Part shown: positions 10,170 to 15,313 of the stretch, piece after piece | Numbering within the stretch: the first letter of the stretch is position 1 | How the letters are laid out: every line of letters starts with the position of its first letter | Assembly (NCBI GenBank): GCA_040143965.1 | Contig: JASJQH010006931.1 | Span: 1 to 36,877 of the forward strand | Origin: Basidiobolus ranarum | Lineage: Eukaryota | Reading direction: 5' to 3' | Length of the DNA stretch: 36,877 bases | Program-made: the position numbers and the translations under genes | The notes under the pieces: model-generated | Database searches by the model: none | Seen by the model: the letters and a program-made list of their open reading frames with translations, nothing else | Told to the model about the DNA's origin: nothing

Positions 10170-10986
10170 AGGTTCAGTTTCAAGTTGAGACGTAGGCTTA
10201 TGTGGGATAGCATTGTGATAAATGAATGAAGTAGTAGAAGTTCAAAGGTTGTTTTCAACTTCTTGGTGTCCATCAACGAAGAATCCCATATAGTCCACTG
10301 ATTTTAAGCTTATATCTCGTGGTTTAAATCTCCGATGGACTGCATTAGATCCAGTAAAGAATCTCAGAGAACTTGTGAGCGTCTTCTCTGTAGCAAAAGT
10401 ATCATCAGTAAACGAAATACCAGCAAGATAAACATACCACCATAAAGGACACAAGTACTTCATCCAAAAGATACTATTGTATCCTGGACGATAACCGTAG
10501 TAAACATTGTTCGAAGAAATGAAAATATTTCGAGTGACTAGGTATCCATTAGGTGCTAGAGGAACTAGATGTGCATCGACACTATGACCAATATACGCTA
10601 ATGGGAGTTCCGGATACGCTGAGTGCATATAATCGAGAATAGCTGGCAAGTCCAAAAATCTCCGATCCGTAATAATTGCTTTCTTGCCTTTAACTTCTAT
10701 TTACACAAATGGTGGCTTGCTTGTTTTGTACACTAGAAGGAGGAAATGAATCACCCACATCACAATAGTCCTAAGTGATAGCTACGCGTTTGGAACTAGT
10801 AGCCAAGTATTCAGGAAAAGGAGCGTAAAACTGTCGCAGTATTGCAGTGGCAGAGCTTATGACCACTGCTGTTTCAAGAACCAGATGCCCATTTCCGGGC
10901 TTAGTCTTAGGTGTAAATAGAGATGCGTGTATGGGAAAGCCATTAACAGCAGGTACAATAATGTCGAGGCCTTTCTTTGTATTCAT
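10170..10986 (-). pseudogene. Degraded copy of the alpha/beta hydrolase at 12698-13741
   Basis: TAC>TAG stop at 10771-10773; splice donor GT>GC; deletion of the intron 3' half and the start of exon 2; internal deletion; GHSVG>GHSVD; GHMGFF>DYMGFF; second stop at 10242; C-terminal AKL lost. Confidence 0.92.
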
Positions 10987-11629
10987 GACCATTTTTGATA
11001 GAGAAATGTAGCCAAGTCAACTATATATGGCTACCATCATGTTGTAAGGGGTGCATTGAAACATATTGGTTTTCCTAAACAGTCTGATTGGTCAAGACAT
11101 AATGAGTGCATACAAGCATTATTTGATATTAACATTAATGATGTTGCAACTAAAGTAAACATCACACCTTCTAGGCTGATATCTACTAGACTGCTTATGA
11201 ATACACGTTCGGTCGATCCAAGATAGATAAACAAATCCATAATAAATCGAGTAAATCAGTCTTGGTGAACTTATCCATATTAGTCGCTAAAATCCCATGA
11301 TTGAATCCAACTATTGGCCGGAGATTGTTTTCCATAGTTGTTAGGGATTGTAAATAACCACCAACGATTTCACTAATAACACTGATAGTTCCGATTCGAG
11401 ATTGATTCGAGATTGAAAGCTTGGATTGATTTTTTAATTCCAAGAACGAGGCTTGGTGTACGTGAAAGCCTTCCAAATATTGACAGATAATCCCAAAGAT
11501 GGACCGATTTAAAAAAAACTCCCTTCGAAAAAGACGCTACTATCATGAAGATTGGGGCAAGCAAAAGATATATATTGGAGACAACGTCTGTATCAGATAC
11601 CTTGCTACTTTTTGAACCCATTATTCAAC

Positions 11630-12303
11630 ATGAACCGCCTATTGCAGATCGTTTTAAGCCTCTTATTAGCCTTCAATTTTGTCGCTGCTAACATCGAAAT
11701 CACCTTTCCAGTTGATCATGAATATCGAGCTGGAGTCCAATACCCCATCACTTGGTCAGTACATTAATATTCACTACAGACAACTAACTTGAACTAACCG
11801 AGTGAGCTTTTAGGAAGGAAATTGGTGGCGCACCTACTCCCGCACTTTTCACTATTAACCTTGTTTACGGAAAAGAAACTGACCTCCAAGTCCAAAGTCT
11901 TATTGTCCAAAACACTGATTCTAAGACTGGTATTTATTTATGGTATATCCTCCCCTCTACTAGACCTAGTACCGAGTATGCCATCGAAATTACAAATGGT
12001 CAAGATTATTGGTACAGCCATTACTTTACTATTTCGAACCCTGGCCAGCCTAGTTTGTCCTCAATTCCTAACCCAGCCCCAACTTCATCTACCTCTGACG
12101 CTAAGGAAGCTTCCGATAAAAAGAATCACCAAGACAGTGATAGCCAGAACAACAGCACTACTTCAAGCAGCACTACTTCAAGCAGCACTGCCTCAAGCAT
12201 CGCTACCTCTGTCAAGAAATCCTCAGATAAAAAGAGTAATGGTTTCTTGGTTAACGCAGGGTTTATTGGTGTTGTTGGCGTGATTACATCTCTCTTCATG
12301 TAA
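11630..12303 (+). CDS. GPI-anchored Ser/Thr-rich cell-wall protein, Kre9/KNH-like N-terminal domain (copy A, 204 aa)
   Basis: Exons 11630-11754 and 11814-12303. Signal peptide; AGVQYPITW...YAIEI...YSHYFTI domain; S/T stalk; KSNG followed by a hydrophobic C-terminal tail. Confidence 0.87.
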
Positions 12304-12697
12304 AAGACCTAAGATTGTCCAATTTAAATAATGATCATTTTTTATATACGCTAACCGTAATTCATTAAGTACCACGCCTTTACATATTCAAGTGTATTCT
12401 CCTCTTTCCTTTAACTCTCCCTTCTTTACCCTTCATTTACTGAACTTCCTATAGAATATCAAAGATTTGTTCCACTAGAAGTATACTTAAAAATAGAGTG
12501 GAAGCTGCTCATTCCATATCCTTTTTGTTAAATAAATATTAAAAACCTGACTCTTTTCATTCAATACTATACACCGAGTTTAGCCCAAGGGTACATGATT
12601 TTCTCTAAAAACCCCGCTACTATTATATTTCGATGGTGCTAATGTTGGTGGTATAGAAGTTTTTATATCAAAGTCGTAATAATCCCAAAGTATTGGA

Positions 12698-13741
12698 TCA
12701 AAGTTTAGCTTGAAGCTGAGATGTAGGTTTAGGCGGAATTACATTATTACATATAAATTGAATAACAGGGGCCCAAAGGTTATTTCTAATTTCTTGGTAT
12801 CTGCCAAAGAAGAATCCCATATGGCCAACTGAATTCAAGCCTATATCTTGTGGTTTGAATCTCCAATGAACGACATCAGATCCAGTAAAGAATTCCAGCA
12901 AACTTGTGAATGCCTTCTCTGTAGCATAAGCATCATCAGTAAACGAAATACCCAAGATAGGCTTACGGAAACGATCGAATTTCTCTTTCCATTCAGGGTT
13001 TACATCGCAGAAATACCTGGGATGCTCCGACCAAGTAGACCATTCCTTCATAACTCCTATAGGTAAATCCTCCATTCCTCCATACTTTTTACCTGGAAAA
13101 TAACCATACCACCGCATAAGTAAAGGACTCATGTACTTCATCTGAAAGATACTCTTATATCCTGGACGATATCCGTAGTAAGCATTGTTCGAAGAAATGA
13201 AAATATTTCGAGTGACTAGGTGTCCATTAGGTGCTAGAGGAACCAAGTGTGCACCGACACTATGGCCAATATATGCTAACGGGAGTTCCGGATACGCTGA
13301 ATGCATATAATCGAGAATAGCAGGCAAGTCCAAAAATCCCCAATCCGTAATAGTTGCTTCAAAGTCGACGAGGGGGTGTTGCTTACTTCAGGAATAAATA
13401 GAGATAGTCAAACATAATTGGTGAGTATGGTTGTGTTCTTGCCTTTAACTTCTATTTGCAAAAACAAAGGCTTACTTGTTTTGTACACTAGAGGGAGGAA
13501 ATGAATCACCCACACCACGATAGTCGTAAGTGATAACTGCACATTTGAAACTAGTAGCCAAGTATTCGGCAAAAGGAGCGTAGAACTGTCGCAGTACTGC
13601 AGTGGCAGAGCTTATGACCACTGCTGTTTCAATAACCGGACGCTCACTTCCAGGCTCAATCTCAGGTGTAAATAGGGTAGCGTGCAAGGGGAAGCCGTCA
13701 ACAGCAGGTATAACAATGTCGAGGCCTTTCTTCGTATCCAT
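12698..13741 (-). CDS. Bacterial-type alpha/beta-fold serine hydrolase (COG4757-like), 317 aa, C-terminal PTS1 -AKL
   Basis: Exons 13741-13476 and 13385-12698. Motifs YDYRGVGDS, DWGFLDLPA, GHSVG nucleophile elbow, EDLPIGVMKEW, FTDD and GHMGFF. Ends CAA GCT AAA CTT TGA. Confidence 0.9.
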
Positions 13742-14381
13742 GACTATTTTTGATAGAGAAATGTAGCCAAGTCAACTATATATGGCTACCATCATGTTGT
13801 AAGGGGTGCATTGAAACATATTGGTCATCCTAAACTGGTTGATTGGTCAAGACAGAATGAGTGCATACAAGCATTATTAAGAATTCACATGAATAGCATA
13901 CAAATGTTACCAAGCATTATTAAGATTATTTGCGCGGTTATGAAATTAGTAAACTAGACCTAATTACCACTTACTAAACTACGAGATTTCTTCTCTGTGA
14001 TTCTAGTAAGATAAACAAATCTTTCACAAATCGAGAAAATCGGTTTTGGTGAAAAACTAGTAATCAGACCCAGTTATTCAGACCCAGTTATTGGCTACTA
14101 ATGACAGTAATGCTTTCGAATAGGTGTTTAGAAATATTTCTGATTCGAGATTGAAAGCTTGGATTGATTTTTTAATTCCAAGAGCGAGGCTTGGTGTATG
14201 TGAAAGCCTTCCCAATGTTGACAGATAATTCCAAAGATGGAATCCTACTTTGATGGAATTTCCTTGAACCGATTTGAAAAAAATCCCTCGAAAAAGTCGA
14301 AGATTAGAGTGGAGAAAAGATATATATTGGAGACAATTGCTACATCAGATTCTTTTCAATTATTTGGACTCATTGTTCAAT

Positions 14382-15021
14382 ATGAATCGCCTGTTGCTGA
14401 TCGTTTTAGGCTTTGCTTTGGCCTTCAATCTTGTTGCCGCTAACTTCGAAGTTGACTCACTTGACAAAAAAATCTCAGCAGGATCTACTTACATTATCAC
14501 TTGGTCAGTACATCAACATTCACTATAGACAATTTACCTCAACTAACGCGTGAGTTTCTAGGACGGAAACTGGTGGTACACCTGCTACTCCCGAACTTCT
14601 CAATATCAACCTTCTGTATGGACCATCAGCCAAACTCCAGCTAAAACAACCTATCATCCAAGGTATTCCTTCTAAACGGGGCAGGTATCCGTGGTGGATT
14701 TCATCCAAAATGAACCCTAGTTCTCAATATGTTATCGAAATTGGAAATGAAACATTTCATCAGTACAGTCATTACTTCACCATTACAAACCCAAATATGC
14801 CTAGTTTGAGTCCATATAATAGCTCAGCATCAGCCCCAACTTCCTCTTCATCTACCTCTGACGCTAAGGAAACTTCCGATAAAAAGAATCACCACGACAG
14901 TGATAACCAGAACAACAACACTACATCTGTCCAGAAATCCTCGGATAACAAGAGTAACGGTTTCTTGGTTAGCGCTGGATTCATCGGTGTTGTTGGTGTG
15001 ATTACATCTCTCTTCATGTAG
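14382..15021 (+). CDS. GPI-anchored Ser/Thr-rich cell-wall protein, Kre9/KNH-like N-terminal domain (copy B, 193 aa)
   Basis: Exons 14382-14503 and 14562-15021. Same intron position and architecture as copy A; open frame throughout. Confidence 0.87.
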
Positions 15022-15313
15022 AGGGCCTAAATATTCCAATTAGATGTTACATCTTCCTGTAAAAGATCTCATAATAAATATCCTCATTGATTATTCAGTA
15101 TAAGTCAATCTGAAGACGAACATCATTAACTGTCCCAATTCGGAACCTATCTTAAACTGTCTTTTTGCTTATCGTAGATAGTAGATAGTTAGAGTACGTA
15201 TGTAGCGCGTTTCGTTCGACCTGATTATGCCAATCCAAACATTTGATACATAATCCCAGCATTGCAGAAACACGTGCCTAAACACAACATTAGTTTCGCT
15301 TTTCTTAAGTCAG

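Follow-up and report, generated by a model that had tools for sequence, protein, structure and literature searches.

The window analysed here, the whole 36,877-nucleotide stretch of Basidiobolus ranarum DNA, holds a hydrolase gene whose product ends in -AKL and falls into a eukaryotic clade in which 43 of the 45 proteins have a PTS1-type tripeptide at the C-terminus, with partial models as the remaining two, versus none of the 331 other proteins aligned. We consider it probable that this hydrolase belongs to an old eukaryotic subfamily that had one early bacterial origin, was tagged before the fungi, and was then inherited vertically and often lost. A single bacterial acquisition would have founded one eukaryotic subfamily, and the PTS1 would have been an early gain, older than the divergence of fungi from aphelids and plausibly older than that of Discoba from opisthokonts, i.e. 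near LECA, which is the age that we infer for the subfamily. Vertical inheritance with loss in most lineages would have followed, and later, in Basidiobolus, an intron would have been added and a tandem copy made, which decayed. An earlier note on this DNA had proposed a transfer into Basidiobolus followed by intron gain and retargeting to the peroxisome. Since the tag predates Basidiobolus and the protein groups with other eukaryotes, this recent-transfer history is mostly not supported by the sequences, and the bacterial ancestry would hold in a deep sense, not as a Basidiobolus-specific transfer.

Gene structure and locus

On the minus strand, the gene begins with ATG at 13741, ends with the stop TGA at 12700-12698 and encodes an intact spliced product of 317 amino acids. 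Exon 1 (13476..13741) carries codons 1-88 and two bases of codon 89, with the first core strands, the SSAT loop and the YDYRGVG motif, and exon 2 (12698..13385) carries the nucleophile elbow, the helical cap (residues about 155-230), the acid and His, the tail and the stop. Between them lies a predicted spliceosomal intron of 90 nt (13386..13475, GTAAGC...CTGAAG, phase 2, 33% GC, branch-like TTGAC at 13411) in a variable loop, as the earlier note had claimed; in the structural model the site is a loop, and residues 81-90 form the lowest-confidence inner block (pLDDT 69). The exon-1 frame meets TAA just past the donor and the exon-2 frame is open only downstream of a TGA; because these stops close both exon frames within the intron, splicing is required for the hydrolase product. 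Ten GT/GC-AG pairs preserve an open frame, but both flanking conserved blocks are retained only with the 90-nt intron or with one of 105 nt, whose donor (GTACAA) is less close to the consensus. The spliced product agrees letter-for-letter with the NCBI model K7432_002170 / KAK9723061.1 (Basidiobolus ranarum), which is a match to an annotation and not RNA proof. All six motifs that had been singled out are present in it, one copy each (DYRGVGDS at 73, DWGFLDLPA at 103, GHSVG at 129, EDLPIGVMKEWSTW at 194, GHMGFF at 276 and PPKPTSQLQAKL at 306), together with the -AKL tail.

The matching loop is uninterrupted in both Mortierellaceae-type metagenome contigs (L094 and L095; the other two of the four loci found were of bacterial type), so that the intron was probably gained in the Basidiobolus lineage, after the tag, with loss elsewhere as the alternative; in this respect the intron gain put forward earlier appears correct. 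In the Mortierellomycota orthologues (P0007, P0009, P0158-P0181) the same loop carries a long low-complexity insert. What looks like an N-terminal intron in L095 is better taken for a small indel, as proteins nearly identical to this one are continuous there. An identical 8-mer stands at both junctions of the Basidiobolus intron (13470-13477 and 13381-13388, minus strand), these being its sole two minus-strand copies in the window, and it supplies a second AG four bases 3' of the acceptor. Intron gain via target-site duplication was not accepted, because the two 8-mers are 89, not 90, bases apart and thus out of register by one.

The neighbours in the window are eukaryotic (Kre9/KNH, a DHX29-like helicase, arrestin, PQ-loop, PAQR/HlyIII, a mitochondrial carrier and Yip1). 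The GC content of exon 2 (0.41) matches that of four neighbour ORFs (0.41-0.43), and its GC3 (0.36) is slightly below theirs (0.40-0.48). The gene is also part of a tandem-duplicated unit of about 2.6-2.75 kb, consisting of a hydrolase gene on the minus strand and a Kre9/KNH-like gene on the plus strand, the two Kre9/KNH-like gene regions (11403..12324 and 14141..15041) sharing 70% DNA identity. Alignment to the intact gene revealed the second hydrolase copy, on which the earlier note was silent, as a pseudogene (about 10170..10986, minus strand). It has two in-frame stops, a donor changed from GT to GC, a 77-nt deletion that takes out the acceptor and about 141 nt of the cap missing; GHSVG has become GHSVD and GHMGFF has become DYMGFF, by which the catalytic His is gone, and the PTS1 is absent. 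In the aligned codons, 162 were identical, 27 synonymous and 67 non-synonymous to those of the intact gene, and 2 were stops. No hydrolase copies besides these two were found by searches of the Basidiobolus ranarum genome.

Contamination was ruled out by the intron, the fungal neighbours, the tandem duplication with the Kre9-like gene and an orthologue in B. meristosporus at 79% identity; the earlier description of the gene as integrated rather than contaminating thus agrees with its eukaryotic neighbours, host-like GC and joint duplication. As to the features of a lineage-specific xenolog, host integration was observed, and neither nesting in bacteria nor a lack of orthologues in other eukaryotes was. 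Among minor observations at the locus, the upstream 150 or so bases are almost identical between the pseudogene and the intact gene, a 128-aa piece of the pseudogene appears as a predicted protein (P0005) in a public collection, and both Kre9/KNH-like genes encode Ser/Thr-rich tails with a hydrophobic end, GPI-anchor-like as judged by eye.

Distribution of the homologues and of the tag

A profile search with four fungal proteins gave 181 matches, and the top 28 among the 120 listed were 2 Basidiobolus and 26 Mortierellomycota-type proteins, the latter a clade of 24 named proteins and 2 others. A search seeded by this hydrolase gave 1839 representatives; at least 15 of the 150 listed share one clade with the query, and closer bacteria or further eukaryotes may be among the rest. 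From a third search (338 matches, 120 of them listed) came another 103 proteins, all lacking a PTS1. The named eukaryotic homologues come from B. meristosporus, Mortierellomycota, the chytrid Polyrhizophydium and the blastoclad Paraphysoderma (partial), and outside the fungi from the aphelid Amoeboaphelidium, the jakobid Andalucia godoyi and one MMETSP marine transcript; eight of the clade members are environmental proteins, and the deep age rests on Andalucia and the MMETSP transcript. None of the named matches listed was from Dikarya, Mucoromycotina, animals or plants, which means 'not seen' rather than absence, as most of the 1839 representatives lie outside those listed.

Bacterial relatives were found in about ten phyla at 31-39% identity (80 loci). 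One of these loci (L047) lies on a contig labelled Gordonia, and its hydrolase and neighbours group with Pseudomonas, so that the contig is probably mislabelled or contaminating. The Basidiobolus hydrolase is 32-40% identical to bacterial proteins versus 34-39% to those of eukaryotes other than Basidiobolus, and the equality of these raw identities is what gives the gene the look of a recent transfer. This clearly calls for caution where horizontal transfers in Basidiobolus are counted by best hit, as a gene with bacterial closest matches can be an old eukaryotic one. The bacterial xenologs of Basidiobolus (PMC7466969, PMC11291939) resemble this gene in being bacteria-like proteins in fungal contigs with few introns and host-like GC, whereas the hydrolase has fungal and protist orthologues and is not nested in bacteria. 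In PMC7466969, xenolog candidates are defined as proteins without a fungal match, a definition which this hydrolase fails.

Regarding the tag itself, the tripeptide AKL (12701..12709, minus strand) fits the C-terminal pattern [SAC][KRH][LM] and lies in a tail that is modelled with low confidence (pLDDT <50 at residues 313-317) and is probably flexible. With the strict pattern the counts were 41 proteins in the eukaryotic clade versus none elsewhere, and PTS1-type ends were likewise absent from all 80 ORFs taken from bacterial genomes. Since the 376-row tree was built with the tail excluded, the tag is a character independent of that tree. All 26 Mortierellomycota proteins are tagged (24 -ARL, one -ARM and one -GRL), as are those of Polyrhizophydium (-AKL), Amoeboaphelidium (-AKL), Andalucia (-SRL) and the MMETSP transcript (-SRL), and the two untagged models are partial. 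At least seven different tripeptides are in use in the clade, indicating that the signal is conserved and not the sequence. In blind checks, the untagged P0011, placed inside the clade, turned out on look-up to be from a fungus, and P0108, which ends in -AKI and was placed outside, from a bacterium.

The PTS1 named in the earlier note is thus real in an evolutionary sense, and import of the hydrolase into peroxisomes is what we would predict from these sequences; Pex14_N matches are present in the Basidiobolus ranarum genome. The motifs of the family were not found in a Naegleria fraction table, in which long cells are cut off, or in four supplements from PMC12697944 on Paradiplonema, which may contain no sequences, so that these tables gave no proteomic location.

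Placement of the eukaryotic clade

Eukaryote-type sequences formed one clade apart from bacteria in all five analyses, with sampling on the two sides of the eukaryotic root by one named discoban and by opisthokonts (FastTree support 0.992 with 273 rows and 0.943 with 376 rows, tail excluded; 97 in a quick IQ-TREE search under C20-PMSF with 88 rows; SH-aLRT/UFBoot 96.5/98 under LG+F+G4 with 48 rows, tail excluded; 95.7/99 in a 40-row tree with 9 named eukaryote rows, the 8 environmental rows left out). Nesting within a bacterial clade, which the earlier note had named as support for transfer, was not observed, as the hydrolase grouped with other fungi, an aphelid, a jakobid and a marine eukaryote. 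In AU tests on 48 rows, trees with Basidiobolus as sister to a bacterial group were rejected in 7 of 9 cases under LG (p 0.07 and 0.059 for the two survivors) and in 9 of 9 under C20 (highest p 0.043). Rejections near 0.05 are soft, because the searches under constraint were brief: one fungal constraint, although looser than another that satisfies it, scored 14-19 logL below that other and was rejected under C20 (p 0.039).

These results bear on the version of events implied by the earlier note, in which each lineage received its own bacterial gene and gained its own PTS1, and the clade is a product of long-branch attraction. The identity to bacteria, at up to 40%, is as high as that to other eukaryotes, the eukaryotic branches are long, two of the bacterial-sister constraints survive under LG+F+G4, and a PTS1, consisting of three residues, is easily gained. 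Nevertheless, we regard such separate transfers as improbable, because the clade persists under C20-PMSF and with the tail excluded, the long bacterial branches L082, P0014 and P0373 stay outside it in the 88-row tree, and no bacterial-sister constraint survives under C20. About 14 independent tag gains would be required, every complete eukaryotic member being tagged, and states outside the tail are shared as well, e.g. Ala157 in 41 of the 45 eukaryote-clade rows versus Gly in 249 of the 331 others. In addition, a conservative pipeline in PMC11291939 lists 8 xenologs for B. meristosporus without the orthologue ORX97982.1, and the protein sheet there has 27 Abhydrolase rows, none of them from Basidiobolus or Mortierellomycota.

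Descent within the eukaryotes was assessed by constraining the clade to the species tree, which was not rejected (AU p 0.295 under LG and 0.196 under C20). The earlier note had stated that a broad, species-tree-like distribution would refute its proposal; these values leave the distribution compatible with the species tree and go part of the way towards that, but it is patchy, not broad. This patchiness, the many losses needed and the long, poorly supported branches within the clade count against vertical descent. In the free trees the MMETSP transcript falls among fungi, and Basidiobolus and Mortierellomycota are sisters in none of them.

A single transfer from a bacterium to a eukaryote after LECA, with early gain of the PTS1, spread from eukaryote to eukaryote (for example between soil or freshwater protists and early fungi) and vertical inheritance within the fungi only, would equally predict the monophyly and the shared tag. 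The very patchy distribution, the poorly supported inner branches and the position of the MMETSP transcript among fungi would suit it, and Basidiobolus is reported in PMC7466969 to have acquired much foreign DNA (2-5% of genes). We nonetheless judge this history unlikely, since the species-tree constraint was not rejected, Andalucia was sister to the remaining eukaryotes in the 40-row tree of named rows (90.4/94), and the eukaryotic lineages are all deeply and to a similar degree diverged from this hydrolase (34-39% identity), with no close cross-kingdom pair among the named rows.

With one early acquisition and vertical descent as the preferred reading, we also compared possible bacterial sisters of the whole eukaryotic clade. 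Five of the seven candidates were not rejected by the AU test, including rhizobial alphaproteobacteria (p 0.065), two betaproteobacteria-rich groups (0.30 and 0.36), myxobacteria and Bacteroidota (0.08), and two other alphaproteobacterial rows were rejected as sister; no bacterial donor was singled out among those compared. The 'Jotnarlogs' or patchy proteins of PMC11627563 are similar in being patchy, apparently ancient, unseen in model organisms and so far without a known function, whereas the hydrolase would be a peroxisomal matrix enzyme, and its absence from model organisms means 'not seen' only.

Predicted chemistry and functional context

The protein matched Abhydrolase_1 (PF00561) and Abhydrolase_6 (PF12697) above the Pfam cut-offs and Hydrolase_4 below. 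No BAAT/thioester hydrolase or hot-dog domain was detected by Pfam up to E 0.1, and no NCBIfam family for the full-length protein at E 0.001; single exons gave nothing informative against Pfam and NCBIfam, and exon 2 alone had no match in a PDB sequence search at E 10. The AlphaFold model (17-row alignment; pLDDT 91, pTM 0.91) has a nucleophile elbow formed by strand 125-130 and helix 131-135. The predicted nucleophile Ser131 of GHSVG (13259..13261, minus strand) is kept as Ser in all 45 rows of the eukaryotic clade and in 326 of the 331 others, the predicted catalytic acid is either residue of Asp239-Asp240 (12932..12937, minus strand; 375 of the 376 rows have Asp at the first position and all have it at the second), and the predicted catalytic base is His277 of GHMGFF (12821..12823, minus strand; His in 375 of 376 rows). 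By its modelled fold and these ordered, conserved Ser-Asp-His residues, the hydrolase is a member of the alpha/beta hydrolase superfamily. Four eukaryote-clade members (P0011, P0032, P0058 and P0136) have GNSVG instead of GHSVG at the elbow.

Many homologues at JGI are annotated as 'predicted alpha/beta hydrolase', which we take to be the COG name for COG4757. The placement in a mostly bacterial, uncharacterised family given in the earlier note is confirmed by shared motifs (YDYRG, DW...D, GHSxG, GYFP, EDLP.G, DD and GHxGFF), 31-41% identity over the full length and the same fold, whereas the Basidiobolus protein differs from the bacterial members in belonging to a separate eukaryotic clade and in its C-terminal extension ending in a PTS1. 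In the ESM Atlas the model matched clusters at TM 0.84-0.86, every one bacterial, in a view of clusters with at least 50 members that returned only bacterial ones for this hydrolase and for that of Andalucia, small eukaryotic clusters being outside its scope.

No family member with a known substrate was found in the literature searched, where COG4757 occurs as one table row in PMC13465635. Searches of a collection with few subscription journals found no literature on the eukaryotic subfamily. The Gcp proteins of a paper on the T2SS of jakobids and heteroloboseans (PMC8134430) were considered as members of the family and discarded, as 'hydrolase' is absent from its main text and ANDGO_04902 from the 10 supplements searched; ANDGO_04902 was also not found in the seven searched supplements of the Andalucia genome paper (PMC7050145), the text of which lacks 'peroxisom'.

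The best structure match of the model was dog gastric lipase (1k8q; Z 25.8, rmsd 3.0, 279 residues aligned), followed by monoglyceride lipases (Z 22-23; 4zxf from yeast and 7ozm from a mycobacterium) and by the thioesterase DcsB (7d78) and PhaC (9knj) at Z of about 21.5. These capped lipases and esterases share the fold and the Ser-Asp-His order with the hydrolase (Z 21.5-25.8, rmsd 3.0-3.6, 252-279 aligned), but at 12-16% identity the kinship is one of fold only. The structure matches as a whole are all 10-18% identical, mixed in function and tied as to substrate class; as a modelled result, the matches to capped lipases, esterases and thioesterases fix the chemistry, not the substrate.

For the bacterial context, neighbours within 4 kb were collected at the 80 loci and Pfam labels were obtained for 148 of the 152 ORFs picked. 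An acyl-CoA-type neighbour (thiolase, 3HCDH/enoyl-CoA hydratase, hot-dog thioesterase or dienoyl-CoA-reductase-like) was present at 16 of 80 loci (15 of 52 lineages) and absent from the other 64. A thiolase lay no more than 4 kb away in 6 genomes out of 50, whereas 0.83 would be expected from how densely such matches occur across the genomes (P 2e-4; L036 and L047 excluded), an enrichment that drops to a borderline P 0.05 if the six loci are counted, for kinship, as about three independent groups. Same-strand runs of the type 3HCDH/ECH-thiolase-hydrolase(-ECH) were found in L010, L014 and L065, a thiolase directly before the hydrolase in L005, and hot-dog thioesterases adjoining it in L004, L011 and L024. 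The thiolase gene of L005 (2700-3947) is frameshifted, likely by an assembly error.

The peroxisome is the home of fungal beta-oxidation. Because of the bacterial thiolase context and the peroxisomal targeting in eukaryotes, an acyl-CoA thioesterase-like role is our best guess and would be the likeliest job, although we hold it tentatively; the ester or acyl-CoA hydrolase activity suggested earlier stays the best functional prediction from sequence and model. The enzyme would be a soluble, capped serine hydrolase imported into the peroxisome matrix by Pex5 via its -AKL tail. His277, oriented by Asp239 or Asp240, would activate Ser131, as the fold and the invariant residues suggest, and Ser131 would attack an acyl ester or thioester held beneath an aromatic cap (GYFP, EDLP, W204, W207 and Y213), after which water would release the free acid. 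CoA would thereby be freed from intermediates, in a thioesterase-like clean-up beside beta-oxidation. Known peroxisomal acyl-CoA thioesterases are the type I alpha/beta ACOT/BAAT enzymes, with Ser-Asp-His, and the type II hot-dog ACOT8/Tes1. The hydrolase would resemble them in its predicted compartment and in the proposed job, and type I also in its Ser-Asp-His residues, but it lacks the Pfam domains of both; it is not a member of either and may act like one.

With the same history, the enzyme might instead be a peroxisomal lipase or carboxylesterase (acting on monoacylglycerol or aromatic esters) or an acyltransferase, a combined alternative to which we give a little less than an even chance. 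The top structure matches are gastric lipase, monoglyceride lipases, feruloyl/cinnamoyl esterases, PhaC and RhlA, dienelactone hydrolases and monoglyceride lipases were matched weakly in profile searches (E between 4e-5 and 5e-3), one homologue of 844 aa (P0114) is fused to a lipoxygenase domain, and beta-oxidation genes are missing at most bacterial loci. On the other side, the structure matches are tied and below 19% identity, and CoA thioesters are indicated by the neighbours that recur, namely thiolases, enoyl-CoA hydratases and hot-dog thioesterases. Taken singly, a lipid or carboxyl esterase role is possible but rather doubtful, an acyltransferase role unlikely, and some other role less likely still.

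Combining the thioesterase-like role with early vertical descent gives a bolder picture, which we put forward as a speculative possibility: an undescribed enzyme of the ancestral eukaryotic peroxisome. It would be an acyl-CoA thioesterase of bacterial derivation that has no sequence kinship to the known ACOT families. LECA would have had it; jakobids, aphelids and four early fungal phyla would have retained it together with the PTS1, and yeasts, animals and plants would have lost it. If this loss is true, the enzyme is missing from peroxisome inventories for that reason; it would be a candidate for the ancestral peroxisomal proteome that is invisible from model organisms, and its presence would indicate that beta-oxidation lacks a step in current accounts, in CoA recycling or on side chains. 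For the large bacterial hydrolase family, the tag offers a first clue to a compartment, the peroxisome, beside beta-oxidation, and its presence in all the Mortierellomycota proteins makes the prediction testable in a tractable lipid-producing fungus. As a further observation at the bacterial loci (L004-L083), regulators recur beside the hydrolase gene (TetR at 10 loci, MarR at 8 and LysR at 8), which suggests substrate-inducible expression in bacteria.
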